Positions 5,951 through 23,281 of a DNA stretch of 29,526 nucleotides are shown here, in pieces. How positions within the stretch are numbered: position 1 is the stretch's first letter; every line of letters starts with the position of its first letter. The notes under the pieces were generated by a model. It saw only the letters and a program-made list of their open reading frames with translations, did not search any database and was not told the DNA's origin. The translations under genes were made by a program, and so were the position numbers. This DNA is from Thermodesulfobacteriota bacterium (GTDB taxonomy: Bacteria; Desulfobacterota; Desulfobacteria; Desulfobacterales; C00003060), in the NCBI GenBank assembly GCA_034189385.1, contig JAXHVD010000032.1, forward strand, positions 1 through 29,526. Reading direction: 5' to 3'.

Positions 5951-7156
5951 ATGACAGTGAAAAGCATTGAGGAAATCGACCTGAAAGGAAAAAGAGTTTT
6001 TGTCCGCGTGGATTTCAACGTCCCCTTGGATGAGGAAGGAAACATCCTCGATGATACCCGAATTCGCAGTGTCCTACCGACCCTGAACTTTGCGCTCGAT
6101 GCGCGGGCAAAGGTCATTGTTGCATCACATCTTGGACGGCCCAAAGGCAAGCGGAATGAAAAATACTCTCTGCGTCCCTGTGGCGTGCGCCTTGGGCGAC
6201 TCCTTTCCAAGGAAGTTCGTATGGCGCCGGACTGTGTTGGCCCCCAGGTGGAGGCCCTTGTCAACGAAATGCAAAACGGCGATGTCCTCTTGCTGGAAAA
6301 TCTTCGCTTCCATCAAGAGGAGACCGACAATGATGCCATATTTGCCCAGGGATTGGCCCGACTGGCTGACGTTTATGTGAACGATGGATTTGCCGTGGCC
6401 CACCGGGTGAACGCATCGGTGGTTGCCATAACCGATTTTGTTGAAGCGTGTGTGATGGGCTTCTTGATGAAGAAAGAATTGAAGGCCTTTTCTCAGGTTG
6501 TAGAGAACCCACGGCGACCGCTGGTGGCAATCCTTGGTGGGGCCAAGGTGGGGGATAAGGTGGGGGCCGTCTCGCATTTCGTTGACCACGCCGACAAGGT
6601 TATCATCGGAGGAGCCATGGCCACCACGTTCCTTAAAGCCAGAGGGATAGACCCGAAAGGGTCCTTGGTGGAGGAGGACCTGGTTCCAGTAGCCAAGGAC
6701 ATTCTTGAAAAGGCCCTTAAAAAGGGGGTGAAGTTCTATCTGCCGGTGGACTGCGTGGCCGCTCAAGAGCGGAATTCGGAGTCCCCTACCCTGATACGGC
6801 CTGTTCAGGAAATCCCCGATGGGTGGATGGCTCTGGATATTGGCCCTGCATCAGTAGCCCTCTTCTCAGAAGTTATAGAAGATGCTCGAACCATCGTTTG
6901 GAATGGCCCCATGGGTCTGTATGAAATGGATTCCTTCAGCCGCGGCACCTTTGCCCTGATACGCAAAGTGGCCAGCAGTTATGCCTTTACCGTTTTAGGT
7001 GGTGGAGATTTGGATATGGCGGTCCACCGAACGGGGGAAGCAGATAACATATCTTACATATCGACTGGCGGCGGCGCATTCGTTGAGTTGCTCAGTGGCA
7101 AAACACTTCCTGCCATCCAAGCACTCATGGATTGTGGTGGCGCCGCAACAAGCTGA
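5951..7156 (+). CDS. pgk: Phosphoglycerate kinase
   Basis: RVDFNVP, SHLGRPKG, LLENLRF, ILGGAKV, WNGPMG, STGGGA; GGAGG SD. Confidence 0.97.
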   Translation: MTVKSIEEIDLKGKRVFVRVDFNVPLDEEGNILDDTRIRSVLPTLNFALDARAKVIVASHLGRPKGKRNEKYSLRPCGVRLGRLLSKEVRMAPDCVGPQVEALVNEMQNGDVLLLENLRFHQEETDNDAIFAQGLARLADVYVNDGFAVAHRVNASVVAITDFVEACVMGFLMKKELKAFSQVVENPRRPLVAILGGAKVGDKVGAVSHFVDHADKVIIGGAMATTFLKARGIDPKGSLVEEDLVPVAKDILEKALKKGVKFYLPVDCVAAQERNSESPTLIRPVQEIPDGWMALDIGPASVALFSEVIEDARTIVWNGPMGLYEMDSFSRGTFALIRKVASSYAFTVLGGGDLDMAVHRTGEADNISYISTGGGAFVELLSGKTLPAIQALMDCGGAATS

Positions 7157-7273: not shown

Positions 7274-8146
7274 TTACCAGTGGGGCTGGTTCCCGATGCG
7301 ATGGCCCATCACTTCCAGGGTGTCGGTTACCACCACAAAGGCGCCCGGATCCACCTGGCGGATGATCCGTTTGGTTCGGGCCAGCTCCCGAAAGGTGATC
7401 ACACTGTACAGGATCTGTTCTCCTTTACCGGAAAATGCCCCCTGGCCTTGAAGAATGGTGACGCCTCTTCGAACCTGCTCAAGGACCCTCCGTGAGATCT
7501 CCTCCCACTGAGAGGAAATAATGATAACGGCCTTCCTTTGGCTTAGCCCCGCGACCACCAGATTCATGACATGGGAGGTGACATACATATAGATCAACGT
7601 GTACAGCACCGGTTCCAGAGGGGAAAACATGGCTGCCAGAACCAGCACGCCGGCATTGAAGGCCAAGGTTGTCGTTCCCAGGCGGATGGAAAACCGGTTC
7701 AACAGGGTGACGGCAAGAATATCCGTCCCCCCTGCTGAGCCGACCGATCGCAGGATGATGCCCGACCCCAAGCCGCTTATGATGCCGGCAAGGAGTGCAC
7801 TCGGAACCGGATCATGGATCGTAACGGGCAGGTGAACCCATTGCAAGGCGCCGGAAAAAATAGCCATGCCTGCAACGCTGTAAAAGAAAAAGCGCCTTCC
7901 AACGAATTTCCAGCCTAATGCAAAAAGGGGCAGATTGAGCACAAGATAGAGCCCCGAAACAGGCAGGCATGGCACAAGGTAGTGGATGACCAAGGCCAGT
8001 CCGGTCACACCGCCGCTCACGAATCTATGAGGAATAAGGATCCCGTTGATGGCCGCTGCGCAGATGGCGCTGCCCAGGGTGATGAGCCCGATGTTCGGCA
8101 ACAATCGGCGCACGAAATGTGAAGTCCTTTTACTGGTGTGCCCCAT
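7274..8146 (-). CDS. YitT family membrane protein (DUF161 + DUF2179)
   Basis: SGGVTGLAL, LNLPLF, GSAGGTDIL, RGVTILQGQGAFS, IIRQVDPGAFV. Confidence 0.92.
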   Translation of the reverse strand: MGHTSKRTSHFVRRLLPNIGLITLGSAICAAAINGILIPHRFVSGGVTGLALVIHYLVPCLPVSGLYLVLNLPLFALGWKFVGRRFFFYSVAGMAIFSGALQWVHLPVTIHDPVPSALLAGIISGLGSGIILRSVGSAGGTDILAVTLLNRFSIRLGTTTLAFNAGVLVLAAMFSPLEPVLYTLIYMYVTSHVMNLVVAGLSQRKAVIIISSQWEEISRRVLEQVRRGVTILQGQGAFSGKGEQILYSVITFRELARTKRIIRQVDPGAFVVVTDTLEVMGHRIGNQPHW

Positions 8147-8198: not shown

Positions 8199-8474
8199 TT
8201 AGGCTACAGCGTCTTTAAGAACCTTGCCAGGCTTAAAAGTCACCGCATTATGGGCCTTGATGGTAATCTTTTCCCCCGTTGCCGGATTCACCCCTTTTCG
8301 GGCCTTGCGCGCCACCTTTGAGAAGGTACCGAGCCCGGGGAGAATAATCTTCCCTCCCTTTGCCTTGATGGCCTCTGCAATGCTCTCAAAAAGCGACTGA
8401 AGGGCCTTGGCTGCCTCAGCCTTTGAGACACCGGCGGCCCCTGCCATCTCGTCAATGAGTTCCGTTTTTGTCAT
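8199..8474 (-). CDS. hup: HU family DNA-binding protein
   Basis: MTKTELID...LPGLGTF...RKARKGVNPATGEKITI...FKPGKVLKDAV; AAGGAGG SD. Confidence 0.95.
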   Translation of the reverse strand: MTKTELIDEMAGAAGVSKAEAAKALQSLFESIAEAIKAKGGKIILPGLGTFSKVARKARKGVNPATGEKITIKAHNAVTFKPGKVLKDAVA

Positions 8475-9170: not shown

Positions 9171-9333
9171 TTGACGGCTTCGTAAAAAGTCGAAAAATGC
9201 CCCTTTCCGTCATTCCGGCGAAAGCCTGTCGAGAGCCTCAAGGCCGAACGGCCGGAATCCAGTCTTTTCAACAACTTCTGGATGCCGGATCATGTCCGGC
9301 ATGACGATTACACGACTTTTTACCATTTCATCA
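9171..9333. repeat. Nested repeat: TIR element containing a REP-like doublet
   Basis: TGACGGCTTCGTAAAAAGTCG ... CGACTTTTTACCATTTCATCA enclosing GTCATTCCGGCGAAAGCC..GGAATCCAG / CTGGATGCCGGATCATGTCCGGCATGAC (9209-9305). Confidence 0.8.
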
Positions 9334-9344: not shown

Positions 9345-9674
9345 CTAAAGAAGCGGAGCCTCCGTCCTTTTCTCTGCTTCCGCCTCGCCTTGCCAATCTC
9401 TTACTCCTTTCAGTCGATAACTGCTCACCCGGATTGTATTTCCACCTTTGACTCCCTTGACTCCTCTTCGCAAAACACCGATGACTTCTATCTCTTGCCT
9501 CACGAGGCCCAGAAGCTCTTTTCCCATCGAATCCGGTTCAACCAGGTACTCACGCTCACCGGGTGTTGAAATGGTGGTGGCAAGTGGATTCCCCTTCTCG
9601 TCCCACTCAATGGGGATGACAATACCCATGACTGTGATCGGTTCATTTCCGGCCTTGCCCCTTTTTCTAGCCAT
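9345..9674 (-). CDS. Small hypothetical protein, paralog of 8798..9124 without signal peptide
   Basis: EPITVMGIVIPIEWDEKGN...EYLVEPDSMGKELLGL...IRVSSY aligns by eye with DEVTIIGTVSAVDYDDKGS...DYQIVKNAFGKQLFKL...LTVTSY. Confidence 0.75.
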   Translation of the reverse strand: MARKRGKAGNEPITVMGIVIPIEWDEKGNPLATTISTPGEREYLVEPDSMGKELLGLVRQEIEVIGVLRRGVKGVKGGNTIRVSSYRLKGVRDWQGEAEAEKRTEAPLL

Positions 9675-9768: not shown

Positions 9769-9988
9769 GCAGTATCCGTGCCACAAGCGTAACCTCTTGA
9801 CATTGCGATGTTTGGCAGATTACGGGGACCTCCAATCGGAATTCCAAGTTCCGATGCCCACGGGCAAGAATGCCGGTGTTGGAATCTTCAGGAGACGGTT
9901 TGACCTTTCAACCGCTTGAAATTAGATTACGAATGGCTATGATAGAACTCTGAGTTCCGATATTTTCAAAGTGAGAACCAAGAATTCT
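9769..9988 (-). promoter_or_regulatory. sigma54 promoter 1 with IHF-like site and three enhancer palindromes
   Basis: Minus-strand TGGCAC-GGATA-CTGC (9783-9769); TGTCAAGAGGTTA (9802-9790); palindromes at 9838-9852, 9944-9958, 9974-9988. Confidence 0.8.
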
Positions 9989-10102
9989 GTTTTCCCCTTG
10001 AAAGTTTGTGGCTTTTGGTGCATTGGAGGGGACTCGGTATTTGGGAGACAGAACCAATCCACCCTTTTTGGCGGCGGCAGTAAAACGTCTCTGGAGGAAT
10101 AG

Positions 10103-11545
10103 ATGAAGGCCATTCTCGTTGCTTCTAACAACCAGTCCGCCTGTCAGGCCATTAGAGGCAGTCTGCGCAGGGAATACACAGTCGAGGTGACTTCCGAGAA
10201 GGATCGGGCCTTGGAGATGTTCAAAAGAAAGCGGTATGAATTCCTCTTCTTAGATGTAGAGATCCTACGCGAATCCACCCCTGACAATAACCTGAAAACG
10301 GCCCTTCAACCATTTTGGCAAGTCTACCCCACGGCCCAAATCATTGTCATGTCGTCCCAGGGCAAAATCAGGGAGGCCGTCATGGCCGTTAAGGCCGGAG
10401 CCAGTGACTACCTGACCTATCCAGTTGATCCCGACGAGGTCAGATATCTGACCGAGAGTGCCTATGAGTCACTGGTCATGGAATCAGAGCTGGACTACCT
10501 GAGAGATAGATTCTGGGAAGGAGGTTCCATTGATGTCGTCCGCACGCAAAGCCCCTTGATGCAAGATGTCTTCAACAAGATCCGATCTGTTGCACCGACT
10601 AAGAGCACGGTCCTCCTTGTCGGTGAAACAGGTACAGGAAAGGGCGTTCTGGCAGGACTGATCCACCAGCATAGCAACCGCAGGGACGGCCCCTTTATCG
10701 CTGTGCATTGTGGCGCCATACCCGACACACTTATAGAAAGTGAACTCTTTGGTCACGAGAAGGGCGCCTTCACCGGGGCTGTACGCAGAAAGCTTGGCAA
10801 GTTTGAAATCGCCCAAGGGGGAACCATGTTTCTGGACGAGATTGCCACCATTACGCCCACTGCCCAAATTAAGCTCTTGCAGGTACTACAGGATGGGACG
10901 TTTCATCGCGTGGGCGGGGAAGAGACTCTGGAGGCGAATGTCAGGGTTGTGGCAGCCACAAATATGGACCTTCAGCAACTCTGCGACCAGGGGCAGTTCC
11001 GAAGGGATCTCTATTACCGCCTGAACGTCTTTCCCGTAGATATCCCCCCCCTTAAGGAGAGGGCAGAAGACATTCCCCATCTCGTTGACGTTATACTCAG
11101 AAAACTCAACAAGTTCCATTCCAAGGAAATCCATGGCATAGATCCCGGGGTGCTAGACGCTTTTGAGGCGTACGCCTGGCCGGGGAATATACGTGAGCTG
11201 GAAAACCTTCTGGAAAGGGCTTACATCATCGAAGCAGCATCCATACTCGGTCCAGAGAGCTTTCCAAGTGACATCCTTCAAGATGGAACATCCATACCCT
11301 TGCAGAGTCTGCCCACGACTCACACACTTGCGGAGGCCAGGAGGAGGGGTGTAGAAGAGATAGAACGGTCCTATCTGAAAGGGCTTCTTACTGCTAAAGG
11401 AGGCCGAATCAAGGAGACGGCTGAGGCTGCAGGCATCACTACCCGCCAGCTACACAAATTGATGAAAAAACATGGCCTGCGGAAAGAAGACTTTAAGGCC
11501 ATCCCCCCCCAGGACAACTTTTCAGAACTGCAAGTTCCGAAATGA
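10103..11545 (+). CDS. sigma54-dependent enhancer-binding protein (NtrC/Fis family: receiver-like, AAA+, HTH)
   Basis: [49 protein letters not shown]-terminal [22 protein letters not shown]. Confidence 0.96.
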
Positions 11546-11741
11546 AAGAAAAACGGAACTAAGGGTTCCCCACATCCAATCTCTGATTATCTCAATATGT
11601 TGTGCTCGATCTGCAGGTTTGTCTCCTTTCTAATGGCACCTCCCTCGACCAAGACCGGAACTGCTAGTTCCTGTCCGCCCCTCCTCCATTCATCTCAATA
11701 GTAGAGATTCCAATGGGTTAACCAAGTGGCACGGCAATTGC
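11524..11741 (+). promoter_or_regulatory. sigma54 promoter 2 with IHF-like site and three enhancer palindromes
   Basis: Palindromes at 11524-11538, 11555-11569, 11657-11671; TTCCAATGGGTTA 11708-11720; TGGCAC-GGCAA-TTGC 11727-11741. Confidence 0.85.
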
Positions 11742-11832
11742 CATGAGTAGAAGCGCTTGAGCGCGCCCCGAAGGAAGTCCTGGCGGGATCGCAGGAAAAA
11801 CTACACATAACAAGGCTTAAGGAGGTAGGAAA

Positions 11833-12210
11833 ATGAAGGTAAACAAGAGGTTATTGGCCGCAAGTCTTTGTATCCTATTATCATCACTGGTGTTCGTTTT
11901 TATGGCGAACGTTGGGCCAGCGCGAGCGTCGGACACACAACCCGCGCAAATGGATGAAGAGGACGCAGCAGGCAGTCTGTTTGAAACCGCCGATGCTTGG
12001 GCCGCCGAGAGTGAAGAGGAGTACAAGGAGGACGAGGACCAAGAGCCATTCAGAGAAGAAATGTCAGAAGAGGGCGAAGAGGGCTCTGAATACGAAAACG
12101 CCCCGTCAGGTGAGGAATATGAATCTTACACGCAGGAACCCTCTGATGAAGAGAGTTCTCACATGCCTCCACAAGGTGACGACGACCTCGCCCAGGCGCA
12201 AGCAGAATAG
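11833..12210 (+). CDS. Secreted, highly acidic low-complexity protein
   Basis: AAGGAGGT SD; signal peptide ending PARA; Glu/Asp-rich mature part. Confidence 0.8.
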   Translation: MKVNKRLLAASLCILLSSLVFVFMANVGPARASDTQPAQMDEEDAAGSLFETADAWAAESEEEYKEDEDQEPFREEMSEEGEEGSEYENAPSGEEYESYTQEPSDEESSHMPPQGDDDLAQAQAE

Positions 12211-12478
12211 GCAAGAGGAAGACACGGTATCTGTTGGATGAAAAAACCAGGCTTATCCCTTGCCCCTGCAGTGTTCGTGATCGAAAATTATATTTGCCAC
12301 AGGGAGGCAAATGCAAAGGCTCCATGTAAGGTTAACCCCTTTGTCGGGAGCGTTCTTCCTGGAAGAGCAATGCCTAAAAAAACCGAGACACGGCACCACG
12401 CGGGGGCAAGTTTTGGCCCATGAAAAGGCGCGATTGGCCCCAGCGAGTTCTCTTTTCGTCCTGGATTCTCAGAAGCAC

Positions 12479-12844
12479 ATGTTGGCAAAAAATAACAAGG
12501 AGTATTTCAGAGGCCTACTGATCCAGCAACTGGACGAGGTCTTAAAAAAGGCAGAAGCTGGTTCTATTGGTGCAACTGATTCCAAAGGCGCAGCTCCCGA
12601 TCTCATGGACCAGGCATCCTCGGAGACGGACAACGTACTGTCTTTCCGCATAAAGGAAAGGCAGAGTCGGCTGGCCAAAAGAATCAAAGCATCCCTGGCC
12701 AAGCTTGAAGACGGAACTTACGGAATCTGTGAGGAATGCGCCAGGGGGATCTCCGAAGAGAGACTGAGGGCTCGGCCAATAGCCAGGTTCTGTATTCGAT
12801 GCAAAGAAAAGCAAGAGTACGAGGAAAAACTTAGGGGGCTTTAG
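12479..12844 (+). CDS. dksA: DksA/TraR family C4 zinc-finger protein
   Basis: PDLMDQAS (DxxDxA tip), GTYGICEEC...ISEERLRARPIARFCIRCKE; start trimmed to ATG 12479 by typical length. Confidence 0.88.
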   Translation: MLAKNNKEYFRGLLIQQLDEVLKKAEAGSIGATDSKGAAPDLMDQASSETDNVLSFRIKERQSRLAKRIKASLAKLEDGTYGICEECARGISEERLRARPIARFCIRCKEKQEYEEKLRGL

Positions 12845-12874
12845 GCATCCCATCTAAACCCTCTGGCGCCGGAA

Positions 12875-13010
12875 ATGAACTACCCCGTAGCAAGGTATCA
12901 TATGTCATGCCGGACTTGATCCGGCATCCAGTTTGTTTCTCTGGATTCCGGCGTGCGCCGGAATGACGGATACGCGGCAAGCCGCGGGGAATGGACCCTG
13001 AGAGATTCAT
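12875..13010. repeat. Palindromic element (IS200/IS605-end-like) with a REP-like doublet inside
   Basis: ATGAACTACCCCG ... CGCGGCAAGCCGCGGGG ... TTCAT enclosing GTCATGCCGGACTTGATCCGGCATCCAG / CTGGATTCCGGCGTGCGCCGGAATGAC (12904-12967), inverted relative to 9209-9305. Confidence 0.7.
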
Positions 13011-13114
13011 CACTTGGGTATTCCCCAGTGCCGCCCTAAGAAAGAATCTCAAGTGTACCTTATGAGAACCAACGAAAACGGATGGAACGGCATCTTTGCT
13101 AGTGGACGGGATAG

Positions 13115-14209
13115 ATGGGATCGATTCGCTTGTTTCTGGCCTGTGCGGTTTTGGTATCACATGCCACGGCTTTGACCGTCGAAATCATGCCAGGACATGT
13201 GGCAGTCCAAGTCTTCTTCATCATATCCGGTTTCTACATGTCGTTGATTCTCAACGAGAAGTACTCTACGAGCACCTCTTTATTCTATACCAACAGGCTG
13301 TTCCGGCTCTTTCCCACCTACCTGCTCGTCCTTGTCCTGTCCTTTGCAGCTCTCTTTTCCTTCGACGTGGCGGCGTTCACCCGCACGGACAAATTTGAAG
13401 GTGTTTTTTCGCACGGGCTTGTCATGGCAGGGACCTATGCGTGGACAAACGTCGCAGTGTTGGGGCAAGAGATGCTGTTTCTACTAGGTGTAGACACTGC
13501 CAATTATTCTTTTTATTGGGCTGTGGACGGAGGCGCCTCAGCCAAGGCCTGGTCGTACATTTTGGTCCCACAAGCTTGGTCCCTTTCCCTGGAATTGTGT
13601 TTTTACGTCTTAGCCCCCCTTCTGCTGCGTCGCCGATGGTGCTGGGTCGGAGGCATCTTCTTCGCCAGTCTTTCGTTGCGGCTCTTTCTTGTCTCAAAGG
13701 GACCGGAATACGACCTGTTGTTGCGAAGATGCTTTCCTGCCGAGTTATGCCTATTTCTTCTTGGTTATTTTGGCTATCTCCTTTTCCTGAAGATCAAGGG
13801 CCGTCCTGGTAGACATTTCGGACTCCTCTCGTGGGTCGTGCTTCTGGCCGTGCTCTTGTCATTTGACAACATTACCGAAAAATACGCCTTCACTATTCTG
13901 GCCCTGACAACGGCCCTATGCATCCCCTTCATATTTAACGCCACAAGAAACAACCCACTGGACAGGTTCCTAGGAGACCTTTCGTACCCCTTCTATATGG
14001 TTCATTTTCTGATAGTGGCATTCTTTGATGACTATTTCGAGGAGTACCCTCTGTTGCCCTTGCTGGCCACAGTCTTGGTAGCCTCCTTGATCCTTTACTA
14101 TGCTGTAGACGGACCGATTGATCGCTGGAGGCAGCGACGCGTGGAAGCCGTCGCTGCCAAACCATTATCCCATAGTGAGGTGAGCAGAAGATGGAAGCTG
14201 TCACATTGA
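13115..14209 (+). CDS. Acyltransferase-3 (OafA-like) membrane O-acyltransferase
   Basis: RLFLACAVLVSH, AVQVFFIISGF, FYTNRLFRLFPTY, WSLSLELCFY, LGDLSYPFYMVH. Confidence 0.9.
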   Translation: MGSIRLFLACAVLVSHATALTVEIMPGHVAVQVFFIISGFYMSLILNEKYSTSTSLFYTNRLFRLFPTYLLVLVLSFAALFSFDVAAFTRTDKFEGVFSHGLVMAGTYAWTNVAVLGQEMLFLLGVDTANYSFYWAVDGGASAKAWSYILVPQAWSLSLELCFYVLAPLLLRRRWCWVGGIFFASLSLRLFLVSKGPEYDLLLRRCFPAELCLFLLGYFGYLLFLKIKGRPGRHFGLLSWVVLLAVLLSFDNITEKYAFTILALTTALCIPFIFNATRNNPLDRFLGDLSYPFYMVHFLIVAFFDDYFEEYPLLPLLATVLVASLILYYAVDGPIDRWRQRRVEAVAAKPLSHSEVSRRWKLSH

Positions 14210-14412
14210 GTTGTATTCAATGCGGAACAGAGTTTGTTTTCTCCGGTCAGGAACGGCAACGTTGCATGGCAAAGGGTTTTGGTGTGCCAAGGCGTTGCCC
14301 GGAGTGTCGCAAGAAGAAAGCCAAGGCAATGAAGACTAGTAATGGTTGGAGGGATATTACCAAGAGAAGGCGCACCCGCCGCAAAGAAGACTTCGAATGC
14401 TTTGAGTTGTGA
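14191..14412 (+). CDS. Small zinc-ribbon domain protein
   Basis: LSCIQCGTEFVFSGQE...KGF..PRRCPECR. Confidence 0.75.
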   Translation: MEAVTLSCIQCGTEFVFSGQERQRCMAKGFGVPRRCPECRKKKAKAMKTSNGWRDITKRRRTRRKEDFECFEL

Positions 14413-14527
14413 CCTCCACAGACCTTCGGGAAAAGGGCTCTCAGCTTAAGAACACGAAGAACCCTCTTGGGGCCCTAAAACGTCAGGCCAAGGGCGGCTC
14501 ACTATCAATCCGGGGGAGGAAAAGCCC

Positions 14528-14752
14528 ATGGGTTTAGGCATGAAGAAAACCGAGGAGCTGATCAAAATCGCCAGCGCGGGCGGTGGGTTTGCCCTGGAAG
14601 CAGGCCGGAGAACGACGGATGAACTGGCGAAGATCGCAACTGCGGCCAAACGATCTGGTGCTACCGTGACCTTTCGAAATATGGCCGTCAGGAAAACGGA
14701 CGACTTGGTCAGGATTGCCGCCGCCGGTAAGGGCCACGTCGTCTTTGACTAG
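14528..14752 (+). CDS. Small hypothetical protein with three internal repeats
   Basis: GGAGG SD; KTEELIKIA / TTDELAKIA / KTDDLVRIA. Confidence 0.75.
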   Translation: MGLGMKKTEELIKIASAGGGFALEAGRRTTDELAKIATAAKRSGATVTFRNMAVRKTDDLVRIAAAGKGHVVFD

Positions 14753-14918
14753 TGAGTGCATGCACATTTTATCATCGGGACGAACATGGCCAGTGAGGGC
14801 AGGGACAGAGGGAGACGACCCTAAGGTTGGCCTTGGGCCCCTGAGAAACGAACTGGCCTGGTTCAGATAGACAATGGAAAGGCTCGGTGAGGGCCTAATA
14901 TGGAGAAGGAGGGCAGAG

Positions 14919-15077
14919 ATGAAGAAGATAGAAAAAGACCTTCAAGGGCTGTTAGAAGGGCTAAAAGCGGTGACAGCACAGATAGACAGCCTGATAGACA
15001 GATGTGACAAGCTGCCGCGAGCTGAAGGCATGGGAAACAAAGAGGCCAAGAGCAAACCAACGGGTTCGCCGACGTAA
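14919..15077 (+). CDS. Small hypothetical coiled-coil-like protein
   Basis: AAGGAGGG SD before ATG 14919; heptad pattern IEKDLQGLLEGLKAVTAQIDSLI. Confidence 0.5.
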   Translation: MKKIEKDLQGLLEGLKAVTAQIDSLIDRCDKLPRAEGMGNKEAKSKPTGSPT

Positions 15078-15160
15078 CCCTAACGCTGCAACATTAGGGG
15101 TAAGTCAGGTGAAGGCCGCCTAACATCTTGTCATACAAGGAATCGGTCACATTCTAGGTT

Positions 15161-15188
15161 GAGGGCATGTCCGGCAGGACATGCCCTC
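15161..15188. other. Perfect 12-bp hairpin with GGCA (GNRA) loop
   Basis: GAGGGCATGTCC-GGCA-GGACATGCCCTC. Confidence 0.7.
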
Positions 15189-16311
15189 TGCTATGAAGGA
15201 AATGGAGTCTCCTCCCATGCCGGAATTTGAGATGAATGATCCACGGCTCTCTCTCATGGACGGGGCAAGCTCCCAGGTTCCGATCATTGCCCCCGAGCTG
15301 GAAAAGCAGAAAGAGATCGCATCAGACAGGAACCAACCCTTGGAGGATCGCTTGGAGGCCTATGAAGATATTCTTGATTCAGAGGTGGGTGACACAACCT
15401 TTTCCAGGGCACGGAACATGGAGCGCGAGGTGGGCTTGCGACAAATCTATTTCAAGTTTGAAGGAGGCAACCCCACGGGAACGCAGAAAGACCGCATCGC
15501 CTTCGTCCAAAGCATGGATGCCTTGCGTCGGGGCTTTGATGCCATCACCGTAGCAACCTGTGGCAACTACGGTGTGGCGGTAGCCCTTGCCGCCTCCATG
15601 GCGGGTTTGCATTGCATCATCTATATTCCTGAAGGGTACCACACCAAACGGGTTGAAGAAATGCGCGGGTATGGTGCGGAGATCATTCCCGTGCCGGGAG
15701 ACTACGAGAATGCCGTCACGGTCTCTCAAGCAAGGGCTGAATCCGACGAAATCTACGACGCAAACCCGGGTGGTGATAACACTGCGCTGCAGTTGAAGGC
15801 TTACGGCGAGATTGCCTACGAAATCTATGATGATCTCCGTGATGCGCCCGGAGTCGTTGCCCTGCCCGTCTCCAACGGCACCACCCTGGCGGGAATTTAT
15901 AAAGGATTCCTCAGTCTTTACCGACGGGGGAAGACCTCTCGGATGCCCCGCATGTTCGCCGGTTCTTCCCACGGAAAGAATCCCATTGTGAGGGCCTTTA
16001 TGAAGAACACTTTCCAGTGTGAGGACCTCAGGCCGGAGCGAATCCGGGGAACCCGCATAAACGAACCGCTCATCAACTGGCATGCCACTGACGGAGACCA
16101 CGCTTTGGAAGCCCTGAAAAACACTCGGGGCTGGACATCTCACGCCAGCGACAAGGCCATGGTCTCCTTCTCGCGCCTGCTGAGCAACCTGGAAGGTCTG
16201 AACGTCTTGCCTGCCTCCACGGCAGGGTTGATCGCCCTTGTTGAATGCCACAGGAAGGCCCCTCTGCCAGGCGATCGCTACGTGGTTGTGCTCACGGGAA
16301 GAAAATCATGA
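15181..16311 (+). CDS. PLP-dependent fold-type II enzyme, threonine synthase-like (start uncertain, may be 15193-15217)
   Basis: FKFEGGNPTGTQKDR (PLP lysine), ATCGNYG, LPVSNGT, PASTAG, VVVLTG. Confidence 0.88.
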   Translation: MPSAMKEMESPPMPEFEMNDPRLSLMDGASSQVPIIAPELEKQKEIASDRNQPLEDRLEAYEDILDSEVGDTTFSRARNMEREVGLRQIYFKFEGGNPTGTQKDRIAFVQSMDALRRGFDAITVATCGNYGVAVALAASMAGLHCIIYIPEGYHTKRVEEMRGYGAEIIPVPGDYENAVTVSQARAESDEIYDANPGGDNTALQLKAYGEIAYEIYDDLRDAPGVVALPVSNGTTLAGIYKGFLSLYRRGKTSRMPRMFAGSSHGKNPIVRAFMKNTFQCEDLRPERIRGTRINEPLINWHATDGDHALEALKNTRGWTSHASDKAMVSFSRLLSNLEGLNVLPASTAGLIALVECHRKAPLPGDRYVVVLTGRKS

Positions 16312-17414
16312 GCCCGAAAATCATGAGCCCATTGTCCGATGGCCACGCCATCGTCTACTGTGAAGGCGCCTTTGGGACGCCAAATGGCAAAACGGCCCAT
16401 GGGCTGGTCCGGCGCACAAGGCGCTATGAGGTCCTCTCCGTGGTGGACTCTTGCTGTGCGGGAAAGGACGCGGGGATGGTTTTAGACGGCAGCCCTAAAG
16501 GGATTCCTATCCATAACGACGTTCGCGGCGCGGTTGAGGCGGCCAGGAGAAATGGAGACACCGCCACCCACCTGGTCATTGGTCTGGCCCCCGATGGCGG
16601 CAGGCTCAGCCCGAAGGCCCGTAAAGATGTGATCCAAGCCATTGGGCTTGGTCTTAACGTAGACTCTGGTCTCCACGATTTTCTCTCAGAAAACGATGAC
16701 ATTTCAGCCCTGGCCGCCCAGCAGGGAGTAATCATTCGCGACATAAGAAAATGCCCCCCCCGAAAAGGACTTCACTTCTTCGAAGGAAAGATAGAAGAAG
16801 TCGACGCCCTAAAGGTCGCGGTCTTAGGAACGGACTCCGCTGTTGGCAAAAGAACCACGGCCTGGATTCTTGTGGATGCCCTCCAGGCCGCCGGTTGGAA
16901 TACCGAGCTCATTGGAACAGGACAGACAGCGTGGATGCAGGGAGTCCGTTATGGGATTATCCTTGACGCCCTCATCAATGATTTTGTTTCCGGTGAGATA
17001 GAACATGCCGTCTGGACGGCCTGGAAGGAGTCTCGGCCCCACGTCATCGTCATTGAAGGACAGGGAAGCCTCATGAATCCCGCTTATCCCGGTGGATTCG
17101 AAATACTGGCAGCAGGCAGGCCCGACGCGGTGGTGCTTCAACATGCCCCTGGGCGGCGAGAGTACGATGGTTTCCCCGGCTATTTCATCCACGGGCTGGA
17201 AAAACAGATAGAGGCGATTGAACTGCTGTCCGGCAAGCCGGTGGTAGCCATCACCGTCAACCATGAGCACTTGGAAGCAGGCCAGGTTCCCGCCGTGTGT
17301 CATGAGATTCGAAAAGCCACCGGCCGGCCTGCTTGCGATATGCTCTTGGAGGGCCCGGGACCCATTGTCAAGGCCCTGCGGCCCTATCTCAAAGGTCAAC
17401 AGGTGAAATTCTGA
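16308..17414 (+). CDS. DUF1611 family protein (DgcN-like)
   Basis: GKTAHGLVR, SGLHDFL, LGTDSAVGKRTTA, GTGQT, DFVSGEIE, IEGQGSL; ATGA overlap with upstream gene. Confidence 0.9.
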   Translation: MSPKIMSPLSDGHAIVYCEGAFGTPNGKTAHGLVRRTRRYEVLSVVDSCCAGKDAGMVLDGSPKGIPIHNDVRGAVEAARRNGDTATHLVIGLAPDGGRLSPKARKDVIQAIGLGLNVDSGLHDFLSENDDISALAAQQGVIIRDIRKCPPRKGLHFFEGKIEEVDALKVAVLGTDSAVGKRTTAWILVDALQAAGWNTELIGTGQTAWMQGVRYGIILDALINDFVSGEIEHAVWTAWKESRPHVIVIEGQGSLMNPAYPGGFEILAAGRPDAVVLQHAPGRREYDGFPGYFIHGLEKQIEAIELLSGKPVVAITVNHEHLEAGQVPAVCHEIRKATGRPACDMLLEGPGPIVKALRPYLKGQQVKF

Positions 17415-19768
17415 TGCTACGCAAAGAGACGAGACAACAGAAGCCGTACCTTGAAAGCGACCCGCTGGAGGGTTTGGCGGTCATCCCACGGCTCGAGGTG
17501 GGACCGGTCCGGCTGGAGAAAAACCGGCTCACCACCCCCTACAGGGTGAGTAAAAACAACAGCACTGACACCATGGAACTGGTGTACCGGTTCGCGGAAG
17601 ATGTCTTCGTTCCAGATGAAGAGGACTCCATCAATCTTGCGGCAATGATTGGAGTGCAGGTGGCTTTAAACTATGGGCTATTTTGCCATGAGATCGTTTT
17701 CCGCGGGCAGTTCAACAAAGAAGACCAGCAATTCATCAAGGCCATGGCCTCCAATACGGCTCGCGAGATCTTTGTGAAGAAGTTTCTCCAACCGAATCCT
17801 TTTCTCCTCCCTCAAGCGACCAATATTGCCCCTGTTAAGAAAAAGAGTTACCTTCGGGCCGAGTTGATTTTTCCCGACCAAGACAGCCCGCCTTCCCTTG
17901 GAAGGAAAAGAGGCAGAAGCACGATGGGCCAGTGGAACGGAGATTCAACAAGACATGCGGTCCTTTCAAGCGGAGGGAAGGACAGTCTTTTGACCTTCGG
18001 CCTCTTAAAGGAGATGGGCTGTGAGGTGCACCCCATATTCATCAACGAGTCCGGGCGACACTGGTTCACGGCCTTGAATGCTTACCGCCATTTTGTGGCC
18101 TCTCATCCGACGACAGCGCGGGTGTGGACAAACTCGGACAGGGTGTTCAACTGGATGTTGAGACATCTTCCCTTCGTCCGCCAGGATTTTGCCAGAGTCC
18201 GATCAGACGAATATCCCATCCGTTTATGGACGGTGGCCGTTTTCATCTTCGGAGCATTGGCCGTCATTAGAAAACGGGGCATTGGCCGTCTTCTCATTGG
18301 AGATGAGTTCGACACAACCCACAAGACGTCCTTTAAAGGAATTGTCCACTATGACGGTCTCTACGACCAAAGTCGATACTTCGACGCCGCCCTTACCCGG
18401 TACTTTCACCGCAAGGGATGGGGTGTCAGCCAGTTTTCCATACTGCGACCCCTGTCCGAGCTTCTGGTCCAGAAGATTCTGGTTGAACGCTATCCCGAGC
18501 TCCACCGTCACCAGGTTTCGTGCCATGCCAGTCATGAGGAAGCAAATGAGATTCGTCCCTGCGGCCGTTGTGAAAAGTGCCGTCGCATCGTGGCCATGCT
18601 GTCGGCCCTGGGAGCAGACCCGGCCCAGTGTCGTTACGGGCGCCAACAGATCGACCGCTGTCTGGCTGACCTCATGACCAAGGGAATTCATTCCGAAATC
18701 CCTGTAACCGAGTATTTGGCCCTCTTGCTTAAAGAAAAAGGCCTGATTCCAGCGCCGCACATCGGGTCGATCCAGGCACGTCAAAGAGAGGAAATCATGA
18801 ATCTGAGATTCCACGATGAGAAATCTCCTGTAGACGGTATTCCCGCAGACCTCCGTGAGCCCCTGTTTCGCCTTTGTCTTGAGCACGCAGACAATGACTC
18901 CACCTTCAAGAAGCCGGCCCCCATTGAACCCACCAAGGCGGTCTCCTCAGTTGCGTATCGTGACAGAGAAGAGGATGAAGGAGTTGACGATAGCCCCCTA
19001 TTGGCCCTCATGACGTGGCCTGAAGCAAAAAAGCGATTCAAATCCGTGGATGTAGCGCTCCTTCCTGTGGGTGCCATAGAACAACACGGCCCGCACCTCC
19101 CTTTAGATGTGGATGCCTTTGATGCCGAGTACCTGGCCCATGAGGTGGCAAAGGCCTGCACCGAGCCAATGCCGATTGTGCTTCCCTTAATCGCCTATGG
19201 TGTTTCCTACCACCATGAAGACTTTAGCGGAACCATCAGCGTGAATCCCGAAACGTTATCTAACCTAGTCTACGACATAGGCATGAGCGCTGCTCGTCAC
19301 GGCATCAGAAAACTGCTGATTATCAACGGACATGGCGGAAACGCTCCGGCCCTTCATTTTGCCGCCCAGATGATCAACCGAGATGCCCACATCTTCACCT
19401 GCGTTGACACTGGCGAGACGAGCGATCCTGACATCTACGCCATGGCAGAGACCCCGAATGATGTCCATGCCGGAGAGATCGAGACCAGTACCACCTTGGC
19501 GGTCCGCCCTGAGGTGGTGAGACTTGAGGCCGCAAAGAAATTCATTCCTCGATTTTCCAGCACATACCTCAATTTCACCTCTAAAAGGAGCGTGACATGG
19601 TACACCCACACATCCAAGATTTCTCCTTCCGGGGTCCTGGGCGACCCCACAAAGGCCACGGCAGAGAAAGGAAGGCGTATGTGGAAAAAGATGATAACGA
19701 ACTTGGTGGAACTTGTGGAACATCTCAAAAGCATGACCTTGAAGGAACTCTATCAGAAACGGTATTAG
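17414..19768 (+). CDS. Fusion: N-terminal PP-loop ATP-pyrophosphatase with Cys/Zn motif (QueC/MurL-like) + C-terminal creatininase-family amidohydrolase
   Basis: LSSGGKDS, SCH...PCGRCEKC; then LLPVGAIEQHGPHLPLDVD, NGHGGN, HAGEIETS, GVLGDP; TGATG overlap fixes start at 17414. Confidence 0.85.
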   Translation: MLRKETRQQKPYLESDPLEGLAVIPRLEVGPVRLEKNRLTTPYRVSKNNSTDTMELVYRFAEDVFVPDEEDSINLAAMIGVQVALNYGLFCHEIVFRGQFNKEDQQFIKAMASNTAREIFVKKFLQPNPFLLPQATNIAPVKKKSYLRAELIFPDQDSPPSLGRKRGRSTMGQWNGDSTRHAVLSSGGKDSLLTFGLLKEMGCEVHPIFINESGRHWFTALNAYRHFVASHPTTARVWTNSDRVFNWMLRHLPFVRQDFARVRSDEYPIRLWTVAVFIFGALAVIRKRGIGRLLIGDEFDTTHKTSFKGIVHYDGLYDQSRYFDAALTRYFHRKGWGVSQFSILRPLSELLVQKILVERYPELHRHQVSCHASHEEANEIRPCGRCEKCRRIVAMLSALGADPAQCRYGRQQIDRCLADLMTKGIHSEIPVTEYLALLLKEKGLIPAPHIGSIQARQREEIMNLRFHDEKSPVDGIPADLREPLFRLCLEHADNDSTFKKPAPIEPTKAVSSVAYRDREEDEGVDDSPLLALMTWPEAKKRFKSVDVALLPVGAIEQHGPHLPLDVDAFDAEYLAHEVAKACTEPMPIVLPLIAYGVSYHHEDFSGTISVNPETLSNLVYDIGMSAARHGIRKLLIINGHGGNAPALHFAAQMINRDAHIFTCVDTGETSDPDIYAMAETPNDVHAGEIETSTTLAVRPEVVRLEAAKKFIPRFSSTYLNFTSKRSVTWYTHTSKISPSGVLGDPTKATAEKGRRMWKKMITNLVELVEHLKSMTLKELYQKRY

Positions 19769-19772
19769 AAAA

Positions 19773-20840
19773 ATGAGAATCACCAAGCTTGATGCCTGGC
19801 CAGTCTCCATGCGGCTCTCTGAACCCTACACCATTGCTTATGAAACCGTTCATGCTGTTACGAACGTTTTTCTTCGAATGGAAACAACCAACGGGATTTC
19901 CGGTTATGGCTGTGCAGCTCCCGATGAGCATATCGCAGGGGAAACACCTGAAAGCGTCCTCCGAGTGTTGGAAGATGAGTTCACCGCCTCTGTAAAAGGG
20001 GCAGATCCACTCCGACCCGTCATGATTCTAGAAAGGCTCAAGCAACACCTATCGTTTCACCCTGCGGCTTTGGCTGCCTTGGATATGGCTCTTTGCGACA
20101 TTCTTGGCAAGGCCTGCAATCTTCCTCTTTGGAAACTCCTGGGGGGGTTCCGTGATCGCATAAGAACCAGCATCACCATCGGTATCTTGCCCCTGACAGA
20201 GACGGTACAGCGGGCACGGGAGTTTGCAGCAAGAGGATTCAAAAGCTTGAAGCTGAAGGGGGGCCTTGATGTAGATGCTGACATCGAGCGCGTGCTCAAG
20301 GTCAGAGAGGCAATCGGGAAAAAGATTGAGTTGCGTTTTGATGCCAACCAGGGGTTCACGGTGGAGCAATGTCTGAGATTCGTCGAAGGAACTCGTCAGG
20401 CACATCTTGAGCTTATTGAGCAGCCCACGCCCAAGGGACAACCAAGCCTGCTCGGTCGCGTCACGAGTGTGGTTTCTATTCCGGTCATGGCGGATGAGAG
20501 TCTCATGACGCTTAGGGACGCCTTTCGCATTGCCCAGCAAGAATTGGCTGACATGGTAAATGTGAAACTGATGAAGGTCGGGGGCATCACAGAGGCCCTG
20601 CAAGTCAATGCCGTTGCCCGCTCAGCGGGATTGGAGGTCATGGTGGGGTGCACGGACGAGGCTGCCCTGGCCATAGCCGCAGGTTTGCACTTTGCCTTGG
20701 CTCGCCCCAATGTGGTCTACGCGGACCTGGACGGCCACCTGGCGCTGGTCCATGACCCTTCTGCCGGGGCGGTGACGCTTCGCAACGGCACCCTTTTTCC
20801 AAGCACCAAACCGGGGCTGGGGTTCGATGTCGCTGATTGA
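19773..20840 (+). CDS. Dipeptide epimerase (L-Ala-D/L-Glu epimerase/DgcA-like, enolase superfamily)
   Basis: KLK, DANQG, IEQP, ADES, NVKLMK, DLDG. Confidence 0.92.
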   Translation: MRITKLDAWPVSMRLSEPYTIAYETVHAVTNVFLRMETTNGISGYGCAAPDEHIAGETPESVLRVLEDEFTASVKGADPLRPVMILERLKQHLSFHPAALAALDMALCDILGKACNLPLWKLLGGFRDRIRTSITIGILPLTETVQRAREFAARGFKSLKLKGGLDVDADIERVLKVREAIGKKIELRFDANQGFTVEQCLRFVEGTRQAHLELIEQPTPKGQPSLLGRVTSVVSIPVMADESLMTLRDAFRIAQQELADMVNVKLMKVGGITEALQVNAVARSAGLEVMVGCTDEAALAIAAGLHFALARPNVVYADLDGHLALVHDPSAGAVTLRNGTLFPSTKPGLGFDVAD

Positions 20841-20912
20841 AATGAGTAGCCCCTTGAAAGGCCCGTCATATGCTCCCTCACCGTCTGTTCCCCCTTGGCT
20901 CTGCCCCATACA

Positions 20913-21126
20913 GGAACTCTCAATTCCTATGTGGCAAAAAGCGGAACTTCAAGTTCATGTTGCCACATCCCTAGTTATTCCATTAGATTGCACTACATAG
21001 ACCATTCCATCTCCCCCTGACCGCGTCCCCCGTCCCGAAATCGGAACCGTGAGTTCCTTTCCGCCCTTGCCCAAATGGCTTCATGCTAATATTATCAACA
21101 TGTTAACATCATGGCACGCACCTTGC
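20913..21126 (+). promoter_or_regulatory. sigma54 promoter 3 (upstream of groES) with IHF site and three enhancer palindromes
   Basis: Palindromes at 20913-20927, 20943-20957, 21043-21057; TATCAACATGTTA (exact WATCAAN4TTR) 21093-21105; TGGCAC-GCACC-TTGC 21112-21126. Confidence 0.85.
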
Positions 21127-21348
21127 GACACGTAGCAATGGAGAATAGACACGAGATTCGTCCAGAATCGACGGCCCCCACAATGAAACAGGAGAGCAGG
21201 AGGTGATGACATGGAAATCTCTGGCTAGTGCCCATCCACAAATGCCCCCCGGAAAGCACGGGCAGACTATGTCAGCGGGGATCTGGCCCCGTACTGAACA
21301 AAAGAGATGCTGAAATGTCCACCATAACCGGAGCAGGGAGATTGGAGC

Positions 21349-21636
21349 ATGAAAGTGAAGCCATTAAACGACAGGATACTGGTTCTAAGGATCGACAAGG
21401 AAGAGAAGACGGCTGGCGGGATCGTCATCCCCGATACTGCAAAGGAGAAACCGCAGGAGGGCAAGGTCGTTGCCCTTGGCCCTGGAAAACGAAACGATGA
21501 GGGAAAACGCATGCCCCTGGACGTTCAAGAGAATGACCGCGTGCTTTTTAGCAAATATGGAGGCACGGACATCAAGATTGATGGCGTGGAACATTTGATT
21601 CTGAGAGAGGACGATATCCTGGGCGTCCTGGAATGA
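21349..21636 (+). CDS. groES: Co-chaperonin GroES
   Basis: [36 protein letters not shown]. Confidence 0.98.
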
Positions 21637-21661
21637 TCGAAAGGAAAGAAGGAGTTTAGTC

Positions 21662-23281
21662 ATGGCAGGCAAAGAGATTAGATACAGCATGTCGGCAAGA
21701 AAAGGGATGATGAACGGCGTGGACGCCCTGGCCAACGTCGTTAAGGTAACCTTGGGCCCAAAGGGCCGCAATGTTCTCATTGAGAAGTCTTGGGGCTCGC
21801 CCCGCATCACCAAGGATGGCGTGACCGTGGCCAAGGAGATTGAACTGGAGGATAAAATCAAAAATCTCGGCGCCCAGATGGTCAAAGAGGTGGCTTCCAA
21901 GACATCTGATGTTGCAGGAGATGGCACCACCACGGCCACCCTTCTCGCTCAAGCCTTGTATCGTGAAGGTGACAGGCTCGTGGAAGCAGGCTCCAATCCC
22001 ATGGCCATTAAGCGGGGCATGGAGAAGGCAGTGGATCTGGTCGTTGAAGAACTGAAAAAGATGTCAAAACAGACCAAGGACAAGACCGAGATTGCTCAAG
22101 TGGGCACGATCTCAGCGAACAATGACAGCTCCATTGGCGCTATTATCTCCGAGGCCATGGTGAAGGTGGGCAAGGAAGGCGTCATCACCGTCGACGAGGC
22201 CAAGGGCATGGAAACGTCCCTTGAAATCGTAGAGGGCATGCAATTTGACCGTGGTTACTTGAGCCCGTACTTCGTCACGGACGCAGACAAGATGGAGGCC
22301 CACCTGGAGGCCCCGTACATTGTCTTGCATGAGAAGAAGCTCAGCAACATGAAAGACTTGCTTCCTATCCTGGAGCAGATCGCCAAGACGGGCAAGCCCC
22401 TTGTCATCATTGCGGAAGACGTGGAAGGCGAGGCCCTGGCCACACTGGTTGTGAACAAGCTGCGTGGCACCCTGAAGTGTGCCGCGGTCAAGGGTCCCGC
22501 TTTTGGAGATAGGCGAAAGGCCATGCTCGAAGACATTGCTATCCTCACGGGCGGTCAGGTGATTAGCCAGGACTTGGGCGTCAAGCTGGAAAAGGTGACA
22601 CTGGACGATCTGGGCACTGCAAAACGGATCACCATCAACAAAGACAATACCACCATTATAGATGGAGGTGGCAAACGTGCCGCCGTGGAAGGGCGTGTCA
22701 AACAGCTCAGGGTTCAAATTGAAGAAACGACCAGTGACTATGACAGGGAAAAACTCCAGGAACGTCTGGCCAAGCTCGTTGGCGGTGTTGCCGTGATCAA
22801 TGTGGGTGCCGCCACGGAGACGGAGATGAAGGAGAAAAAGGCCCGCGTCGAAGATGCCTTGAACGCCACCCGGGCAGCCGTGGAGGAAGGTATTGTTCCA
22901 GGAGGGGGTGTGGCATACATGCGGACGTTGAAGGCCCTTGAAAGCCTCAAGTTGCCTGGCGAGGAGCAATTGGGGGTAAATATCGTAAAGCGCACCCTTG
23001 AAGAACCGGTCAGACAGATTGCCGAAAATGCCGGCTTTGAGGGCTCTGTGGTGCTTAAAGAGGTCATGGAAGGCAAGGACGGTTTTGGCTTCAATGCGGA
23101 AAGCGGGCAGTTTGAGGACCTCGTGAAAGCGGGCGTGATCGACCCGACAAAGGTGGCAAGATTTGCGCTGCAAAATGCGTCATCCGTGGCCGGGCTCCTC
23201 CTTACTACCGAGGTGGCAGTCACTGAAAAGCCGAAGAAGAAAAAGGGGACAGCACAGATGTCCCCCAAAGACATGTACTAG
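21662..23281 (+). CDS. groEL: Chaperonin GroEL
   Basis: [48 protein letters not shown]. Confidence 0.98.

Follow-up and report, generated by a model that had tools for sequence, protein, structure and literature searches.

A conserved sigma54 regulon of probable stress genes in Desulfobacteria and a predicted OB-fold partner of its likely activator

Introduction

Which factor governs three sigma54 promoters of like design, one of them in front of a groES-groEL pair, and how is that factor itself controlled? The question is raised by contig JAXHVD010000032.1 of assembly GCA_034189385.1, from a Thermodesulfobacteriota bacterium of the order Desulfobacterales. The window analysed here (29,526 nucleotides) is this entire contig, called C26, of a 4.13-Mb assembly that is 90% complete with 4% contamination. 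An earlier reading of the letters alone (the original prediction) had proposed a local regulon, served by the bacterial enhancer-binding protein (bEBP) encoded between two of the promoters. The answer reached here, to which we give a probability of about 0.6, is a conserved sigma54 stress regulon that is likely activated by this bEBP through palindromes of the consensus RGAAY-N5-RTTCY, with predicted control of the activator by a cytoplasmic OB-fold protein on its AAA+ domain. The promoters, the motif, the spacing and the link to this bEBP subfamily are real and conserved. Literature searches, with supplements, figures, RegPrecise and most subscription papers outside their scope, gave no account of this regulator, motif or OB-fold partner, and the regulon is apparently undescribed so far.

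Promoter design in the window

Three -24/-12 sites of the form TGGCAC-N5-YTGC lie at 9783-9769 on the minus strand (P1) and at 11727-11741 (P2) and 21112-21126 (P3) on the plus strand, all where the original prediction had placed them. Counted from the TGG, the upstream palindromes start at -69, -175 and -205 (P1), at -70, -172 and -203 (P2) and at -69, -169 and -199 (P3), the one at -169 of P3 (20943) having been picked up by a looser scan. The proximal palindrome ends 54–55 bp before the TGG, the next one stands 100–106 bp further and the third 30–31 bp beyond, just as had been claimed for nine related palindromes in conserved spacing. The sequence GGAAC-N5-GTTCC given for the proximal palindromes had to be loosened: their positions hold, while the exact sequence occurs in just three of the nine window sites (11555, 11657 and 21043), and RGAAY-N5-RTTCY is the working consensus across the family. 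Similarly, a box resembling a site for integration host factor (IHF), predicted before each promoter, is present at all three (-19 to -7), but is exact at P3 alone, with one mismatch at P1 and two at P2. Overlooked in that first reading were a second IHF-like box at -134 to -139 (about -137), clear at P1 and P2 (one mismatch each) and weak at P3, as well as a duplicate of the whole block on contig C5 and an hsp20 remnant between P3 and groES. The promoter elements are the following.

9769-9783, minus strand: P1 sigma54 -24/-12 promoter, TGGCAC-N5-CTGC, kept in the C5 copy
9790-9802, minus strand: P1 promoter-proximal IHF-like box, 1 mismatch
9838-9852: P1 proximal palindrome (-69)
9909-9921, minus strand: P1 second IHF-like box (-138), 1 mismatch
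9944-9958: P1 middle palindrome (-175), in the bEBP upstream region, adjoining the sigma70-like match 9916-9943
9974-9988: P1 distal palindrome (-205)
11524-11538: P2 distal palindrome (-203), within the last codons of the bEBP gene
11555-11569: P2 middle palindrome (-172)
11590-11602, plus strand: P2 second IHF-like box (-137), 1 mismatch
11657-11671: P2 proximal palindrome (-70)
11708-11720, plus strand: P2 promoter-proximal IHF-like box, 2 mismatches
11727-11741, plus strand: P2 sigma54 -24/-12 promoter
20913-20927: P3 distal palindrome (-199)
20943-20957: P3 middle palindrome (-169)
20978-20990, plus strand: P3 second IHF-like box, 3 mismatches, placed from the C5 copy as the best score in that stretch
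21043-21057: P3 proximal palindrome (-69)
21093-21105, plus strand: P3 promoter-proximal IHF-like box, exact
21112-21126, plus strand: P3 sigma54 -24/-12 promoter

Two further promoter candidates were rejected. The TGGCAC at 8192 (minus strand), before yitT, misses the GC of a -12 element. A sigma70-like match at 9916-9943, considered as a promoter of the bEBP gene, has its -35 match inside the second IHF-like box of P1, so that its conservation in relatives is no evidence for a promoter. Autoregulation of the bEBP is possible. An Rfam scan of the window gave no family match, and a terminator scan was uninformative, with 28 candidates compared with 22.5 ± 5.7 in shuffles.

Conservation of the motif together with the activator

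Within the source genome, a matrix built from the nine window sites alone found palindrome triplets on C26 and C5 only, the three further triplets all being on C5. This contig holds a second copy of the block, 79–94% identical, with the same three promoters and all sites kept. Of the 129 TGGYAY-N5-YTGC sites in the genome, an upstream palindrome match accompanies only six, namely P1-P3 and their C5 counterparts; this test used an 18-site matrix, itself including the sites of those six promoters.

Concerning other genomes, the N-terminal 147 residues of the bEBP match 166 of 401 genomes of the class at E ≤ 1e-12. The named orthologue loci, which are the best 80 of 421, come mostly from Desulfobacterales, with others from Syntrophales, Desulfatiglandales, Verrucomicrobiota, Aminicenantes, Krumholzibacteria, SAR324, Calditrichaeota and Fibrobacterota. 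Of the 40 loci fetched for strong bEBP matches, 35 had a called promoter together with an upstream site, as did 45 of the 80 named loci, eight of which repeat members of the 40-locus set. Upstream-site offsets across orthologue loci peak at -67 to -70, -169 to -174 and -199 to -204, although many relatives show one or two called sites only, not three. The 80 orthologue loci hold 170 palindromes, against 6–8 in each of five shuffles, and palindromes flank the bEBP stop codon in 60 of 98 loci.

The strict pattern of a proximal site plus promoter was present in 47 of 165 bEBP-positive and 10 of 235 bEBP-negative genomes, or in 44 and 6 once seven matches resembling one coding-sequence coincidence had been removed; no p-value is claimed for these counts, the genomes being kin and not independent. 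All 18 genomes with two or more copies of the pattern were bEBP-positive, and a reversed-pattern control gave four matches in total.

A metagenome scan was also run from the motif side, with a query that held the proximal site and the promoter only, and the 80 of its 123 listed stretches that had flanks yielded 77 distinct promoters. Among promoters found in this way, a distal site, absent from the query, was present in 59 of 71 and the 29–32 bp distal pair in 45 of 71, and an IHF box (at most two mismatches) was present in 66 of 77, as compared with 1.5% of random positions. The second IHF-like box peaks at -134 to -139, where it was found in 41 of 69 promoters versus 10, 14, 6 and 24 in four control windows. 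In 24 of the 80 motif-found loci, a bEBP at least 50% identical to that of the window was encoded within 3 kb. Thus, the co-occurrence with bEBP orthologues that the original prediction expected is borne out from both sides, and its scan of the genome with the nine sites brought up further triplets on C5 alone. Its description of the regulon as local, on the other hand, has to be given up: the system is a conserved one, and in relatives it has targets that lie on other contigs.

The activator

The gene between P1 and P2 encodes the protein considered as the activator.

10103-11545, plus strand: bEBP, 480 residues, with a degenerate receiver, an AAA+ domain with GAFTGA and a probable Fis-type helix-turn-helix (HTH)

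The AAA+ domain matches Sigma54_activat (PF00158) with E 1.6e-67. Its GAFTGA motif is exact in 93 of 103 full-length orthologues, the Walker A and B motifs are intact, and the arginine fingers R300 and R306 occur in 103 of 103. The C-terminal HTH scored 20.9 bits with HTH_8, under the cut-off of 22; it is conserved in the family, and a structural model places its helices at 436-443 and 447-456. Among the 30 bEBP-like hits of the genome, the HTH motif was found in the window copy and the C5 copy only. As to the named NCBIfam families of bEBPs (NtrC, AtoC, ZraR, NifA, NorR, PspF, PEP-CTERM regulator, RtcR and others), among the matches listed the protein stays below every cut-off, its best score being 352 bits against a cut-off of 502.6 (best 25 of 38 matches).

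The receiver is modelled as a receiver-like alpha/beta domain, and 93 of 103 orthologues retain Asp51, the phospho-acceptor. An acidic pair after beta1 is a canonical feature of phosphorylated receivers; here position 8 has no D or E in any of the 103, and positions 8 and 9 are both acidic in none. The conserved catalytic Lys after beta5 is also missing (K in 0 of 103, Y in 90) at a position that aligns with the K of the NtrC-family chain 4l4u. A kinase is encoded within 2.5 kb in 2 of 59 bEBP loci, as against 14 of the 28 other bEBPs of the genome. The degenerate receiver, together with the rarity of a neighbouring kinase, makes control by something other than a cognate kinase likely.

Target genes

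The genes behind the three promoters of the window, with their position and strand, are listed here.

9345-9674, minus strand: cytoplasmic OB-fold protein, 109 residues, first gene behind P1
8798-9124, minus strand: paralogous OB-fold protein, 108 residues, with an N-terminus that by eye resembles a signal peptide
8199-8474, minus strand: HU-family gene, co-directional behind P1, a presumed member
7274-8146, minus strand: YitT/DUF2179 membrane protein, co-directional behind P1, heading such promoters in several relatives
11833-12210, plus strand: first gene behind P2, for an acidic protein (28% D+E) whose N-terminus resembles a signal peptide
12479-12844, plus strand: DksA/TraR-family gene with a DxxDxA motif; relatives have such a gene in first or second place behind promoters of this kind
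13115-14752, plus strand: Acyltransferase_3, zf_Tbcl zinc ribbon and a 74-residue gene, presumed members, the first two heading such promoters in relatives
15181-20840, plus strand: operon of PALP, DgcN-like, creatininase-domain and dipeptide-epimerase-like genes, of uncertain membership
21349-23281, plus strand: accessory groES-groEL, behind P3

The target classes of the original prediction (the paralogue pair, the acidic secreted protein, DksA and groESL) all recur behind such promoters in relatives. First genes were assigned by simple calling, which for some singletons picked a wrong frame. The commonest first gene belongs to an unnamed OB-fold family of 80–110 residues, which takes this place in 50 of 122 genome-locus promoters (repeats from overlapping loci included) and in 32 of 77 metagenome promoters. 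With hsp20, groES or groEL in first place in 10 of the 77, groESL is a real target, though one of a minority. Other recurrent first genes encode zf_Tbcl, DksA-like, YitT and Usp proteins, acidic exported proteins, glycosyltransferases and polyamine enzymes (SpeD, spermidine synthase, ornithine and arginine decarboxylases). The PALP to epimerase operon stands directly behind such a promoter in two loci (L189 and L356). Across 112 bEBP loci, the gene counts were 29 for DksA-like, 23 for zf_Tbcl, 16 for HU, 7 for hsp20, 6 for groES and 0 for the beta subunit of the alternate F1F0 ATPase (N-ATPase). An hsp20 pair at 24967-25875 (plus strand) of the window has neither the motif nor a sigma54 site, and its C5 counterparts are about 11 kb from the rest of the block.

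The second copy and the groESL genes

On C5 an intact hsp20 stands between P3 and groES; all that the window retains of it is the ribosome site and five codons.

21211-21228, plus strand: hsp20 five-codon remnant, intact at the same place in C5

The same deletion is found in one metagenome locus (L216). To judge from this comparison, P3 was once the promoter of an hsp20-groES-groEL set, from which hsp20 has been deleted in the window copy. C5 and C26 may be true paralogues or may come from two relatives in one bin; contigs nearly identical to each copy occur among the metagenome loci. The genome has three groEL genes. The third groESL, on contig C6 beside an ileS-like gene, is without the motif and is the housekeeping copy, the groES-groEL of the window being an accessory one. 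The original prediction had considered a groESL under sigma54 unusual, but RpoN-dependent groESL is known in Bradyrhizobium japonicum, and groESL is therefore not the most surprising part of the regulon.

The CIRCE element, said not to be seen at this groESL, was not found anywhere in the assembly with up to three mismatches to the consensus. Neither hrcA nor rpoH was found in the 90%-complete assembly, which is also without an rpoD-type sigma factor (there being only three sigma matches, of the size of extracytoplasmic function factors). Since rpoD is missing too, the absence of hrcA and CIRCE says little, and the idea that loss of hrcA or rpoH caused sigma54 control was dropped. The rpoN gene was found, together with 15 HU/IHF-family, 30 bEBP-like and 71 HATPase_c matches.

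The OB-fold family and its predicted contact with the activator

The OB-fold family consists of a cytoplasmic and a signal-peptide subtype, homologous at 98% probability in profile comparison. The cytoplasmic protein is predicted to have an OB fold with a mean local confidence (pLDDT) of 80.8, and among its best structural neighbours are NigD-like (Z 8.1, root-mean-square deviation 2.2, 72 residues aligned) and NlpE (Z 7.2, deviation 4.1, 80 aligned) domains. The profile of the family matches 2451 clusters at 50% identity; a search by shared words gave 10 close relatives only. Among 31 members, Pfam matched DUF5818 (PF19135) in two, with a best E of 0.0036, and gave no hit to the PspA or FleN families. 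DUF5818 is a weak lead, with an Atlas feature score of 0.88 and a TM of 0.75 between the secreted paralogue and the DUF5818 model. Of 112 distinct bEBP loci, 82 contain an OB-fold gene; counted by genome, the family was present in 124 of 165 bEBP-positive versus 19 of 235 bEBP-negative ones. Both genes are also found in complete genomes (G008, G285 and G341 among them).

The complex of bEBP residues 1-400 with OB residues 8-95 was predicted with a score of 0.72, while the best of three controls reached 0.00; the mark applied to such scores was attained by 116 of 157 pairs with a solved structure and by 2 of 215 mismatched ones, figures that are only roughly valid for alignments of our own. The runs agreed in at least 91% of contacts, with a partner pLDDT of at least 82. 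The predicted contact is on the AAA+ domain (residues 162-168, 192, 305 and 309-311), not on the receiver. On the OB side, the interface residues are conserved (G17 and W24 in 31 of 31 members, E40 in 30, P21 in 28), and W24 and the TxDEE stretch are mostly missing from the secreted subtype. On the bEBP side, K/R167 is found in 96 of 103 orthologues, as opposed to D/E in 18 of the 28 other bEBPs of the genome, and F310 in 103 of 103 as opposed to 4 of 28. Residue 192 aligns to S54 of PspF, within the W56 loop. PspA is reported to dock on that loop (PMC3791423). Altogether, the model supports binding, without giving the sign of the regulation.

Comparison with known systems

The arrangement is like that of PspF-PspA in Escherichia coli, where the bEBP has a divergent target next to it, the first product of this target acts in trans on the AAA+ domain by binding it (here a prediction) and the output is a stress response; one predicted contact here falls in the equivalent of the W56 loop. 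Unlike PspF, the window bEBP keeps an N-terminal receiver-like domain, is without the YLW patch and falls well short of the PspF cut-off. Its predicted partner has an OB fold in place of the coiled coil of PspA, and the targets here are chaperones and metabolic operons. The system is also like FleQ-FleN of Pseudomonas in that the N-terminal domain of the bEBP need not be phosphorylated and the partner is placed, here by prediction, on the AAA+ domain: FleN controls FleQ via this domain, and FleQ needs no phosphorylation (PMC8528422). However, FleN is a P-loop ATPase on loop 1 and nearby helices, with flagellar targets, while the OB protein is predicted to sit on the 162-168/305-311 face. A sigma54 promoter with three enhancer sites is known from NorR and norVW, where all three are required for ATPase activity and the oligomer (PMC2831303). 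In the window they form a pair and a single site over about 150 bp, with an IHF-like box between, unlike the three NorR sites in a 66-bp fragment, and the motif and the sensor domain differ.

Concerning the targets, an accessory groESL under sigma54 has its like in groESL3 of B. japonicum, the activator of which is NifA; no nif genes are in the window, and the activator family and the motif differ. That operon is RpoN-dependent and co-regulated with nif genes (PMC4842269, PMC6604987). The YitT, DksA-like and Usp families, which head promoters here, are shared with the SigB regulon of Bacillus subtilis. This is a likeness of output only, because SigB is an alternative sigma70-type factor with partner switching, in contrast to sigma54 with a bEBP. 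YocK is presumably DksA/TraR-like, and NhaX presumably a Usp. A published list of the SigB regulon includes yitT, yocK and nhaX (PMC7824861). The sigma54 regulome of Desulfovibrio vulgaris (Kazakov 2015) follows the same strategy at the level of the phylum, with many bEBPs and palindromic sites, some of them for stress genes; its Table 1 gives targets as locus tags and names no chaperone function, and the main text, figures and supplements aside, has no groEL, hsp20 or GGAAC (PMC4641369). Sigma54 promoters before chaperone genes have been reported for Bacteroidota and Planctomycetota (PMC12316311).

Proposed mechanism and alternatives

It seems reasonable to interpret that the HTH of the bEBP very probably binds the palindromes and its AAA+ domain opens the promoters. 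By analogy with NorR, bEBP dimers occupying the three palindromes would assemble into one hexamer, a proposal for which the odds are moderately good; an IHF bend at about -137 would join the distal palindrome pair to the proximal site, and another at -19 would bring the bEBP ring to the sigma54 RNA polymerase. P1 would yield the OB protein as its first product, and the model makes it rather probable that this protein docks on bEBP residues 162-168, 192 and 305-311. If it binds, the analogy with PspA and FleN favours, to some degree, inhibition, that is, a negative feedback which would replace phosphorylation and damp the activator. The output may, on balance, be general stress protection, to judge from the encoded families (accessory GroESL, Hsp20, DksA-like, Usp, HU, polyamine and probable solute-making enzymes, and acidic exported proteins). 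Salt or osmotic stress is a first guess for the stimulus.

Several observations weigh against this interpretation. As to the regulon, 118 of the 165 bEBP-positive genomes are without the strict pattern, no promoter was called in 35 of the 80 named loci, both Fibrobacterota loci (L118 and L122) are without any palindrome site, and kinship makes the genome counts overstate independence. The targets are heterogeneous, many being enzymes without a known product, and gaps of 220–428 bp separate several downstream genes, so that operon extents are uncertain. As to the control of the activator, the retention of Asp51 leaves phosphorylation by a distant kinase possible, a single predicted contact (192) lies within the PspA-docking loop, and no OB hit was obtained in 41 of the 165 bEBP-positive genomes. 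Co-evolution of the AAA+ patch with the OB gene was not seen in 24 loci from OB-negative genomes, which keep T166 (24/24), K/R167 (19/24) and F310 and P311 (24/24), although N192 drops to 4/24, from 12/20. The conservation of the patch is thus not explained by the OB gene alone, and it may have another reason.

Four other explanations were considered. The OB protein could be a co-activator that stabilises the hexamer in a positive-feedback switch, for example into dormancy or biofilm, and the complex prediction, which gives no sign, would fit this as well. A receiver without its Lys may need help in activating, and induced partners needed for activation are known, such as RtcAB with RtcR (PMC9650030). 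Nevertheless, both PspA and FleN are inhibitors that act by binding AAA+ domains in trans, and the predicted site includes Y305, beside the arginine finger R306. Moreover, several OB-negative genomes keep sites and promoters, so that the OB protein looks non-essential, and co-activation is in our opinion improbable.

The OB proteins could also be outputs only, namely small stress or envelope proteins, in which case an orphan kinase acting at Asp51, a small ligand or the amount of the bEBP itself would set the activity of the bEBP. An activator in the cytoplasm is out of reach for the secreted paralogue, envelope lipoprotein domains (NigD-like and NlpE) are among the best structural neighbours, and the AAA+ patch is retained without a detectable OB gene; Asp51 and the 71 HATPase_c matches of the genome point the same way. 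What makes this reading a rather unlikely one is the complex score of 0.72 versus 0.00, with an interface formed by the residues that are best conserved in the cytoplasmic subtype, and the absence of the receiver Lys and acidic pair throughout the orthologues.

Much less credit is due to the proposal that a different factor binds the palindromes, the bEBP being a mere neighbour or a co-regulated gene. Binding of the palindromes by the bEBP is a prediction, there are 28 other bEBP-like genes in the genome, and 10 genomes have the pattern with no bEBP hit; but four of these exceptions are one recurring match, apparently a coding-sequence coincidence, and the genomes are incomplete. In addition, the sites flank the bEBP stop codon in most loci, and the motif and the HTH are conserved together across phyla. 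Finally, a chance pattern or an artefact of assembly or binning is hardly credible, even with an incomplete, partly contaminated assembly that is without rpoD and in which C5 and C26 may be two relatives binned together, given the excess of sites over shuffles, the independent recovery in metagenomes of elements outside the query, the near-identical metagenome contigs for both copies, and the fact that a binning error would leave the motif untouched.

Other observations near the regulon

An N-ATPase operon occupies positions 1-2645 (minus strand) of the window and is truncated by the contig edge. In C5 (L197, 1-6107) it is complete (beta, epsilon, Q, R, a, c, b, alpha, gamma), has a split Usp-like gene and one for a probable Na+/Ca2+ antiporter after it, and is co-directional behind P1. 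It was rejected as a core member, because it is present in none of the 112 orthologue loci and an opposite-strand pgk interrupts it in the window. A separate, more distant atpD is on contig C8. The pgk gene (5951-7156, plus strand) lies between yitT and a family 2 glycosyltransferase (GT2) gene, shares only 27–28% identity with the genome's two further pgk-like genes, and is missing from the C5 copy, where two other genes stand between HU and yitT.

The GT2 enzyme (3852-5099, minus strand) is related to glucosyl-3-phosphoglycerate synthase, below the cut-off, and C5 has GT4 and glucosylglycerate-hydrolase-like genes behind P3; together these genes hint at solute sugar metabolism. At 17414-19768 (plus strand), between the DgcN-like and epimerase genes, a creatininase domain forms the end of a fusion in which it is preceded by 530 residues without annotation, apart from a faint MurL-like match, and this gene set is possibly a D-amino-acid or peptide pathway. 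Genes for a KamA-family radical SAM enzyme and two D-Ala-D-Ala-ligase-like ATP-grasp enzymes recur directly behind such promoters (L172, 2970-6780, with a GNAT gene; L161; L186), the product being perhaps a beta-amino-acid peptide solute. A conserved family of 115–124 residues that starts with MxWKFWKK, without Pfam or NCBIfam match, is a recurrent first gene (L085, 11687-12046, and others). A relative from the same genus has a gene for a sulphur oxygenase reductase (L044, 5495-6529, minus strand) directly behind a full three-site promoter. Elsewhere in the window there is a toxin-antitoxin-like HEPN and nucleotidyltransferase pair (26443-27197, plus strand); the short intergenic elements 5332-5596 and 9186-9322 match other places of C5 at 77–88%, and the element 12900-12970 is a GC-rich hairpin.

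Significance

For this regulon, the analysis provides a motif, a regulator, a list of targets and a candidate control protein, the regulator being present in 166 of the 401 genomes sampled from the class and also in several phyla beyond it. Because the geometry of the promoters is fixed, the regulon lends itself to direct tests, whether in vitro or with reporters in a laboratory strain. A first role is proposed for a large unnamed family of OB-fold proteins. In a wider and more doubtful picture, many Desulfobacteria would run their general stress response via sigma54 and not via RpoS or SigB; a stand-alone OB-fold anti-activator would cap the AAA+ domain of a bEBP that works independently of kinases, the exported paralogue of this anti-activator would serve the same signal at the envelope, and a three-site enhancer with two IHF sites would template the hexamer. 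If true, an OB-fold partner on the AAA+ domain of a bEBP would add a new mode to those by which PspA, FleN, HrpV and NifL control sigma54 systems.

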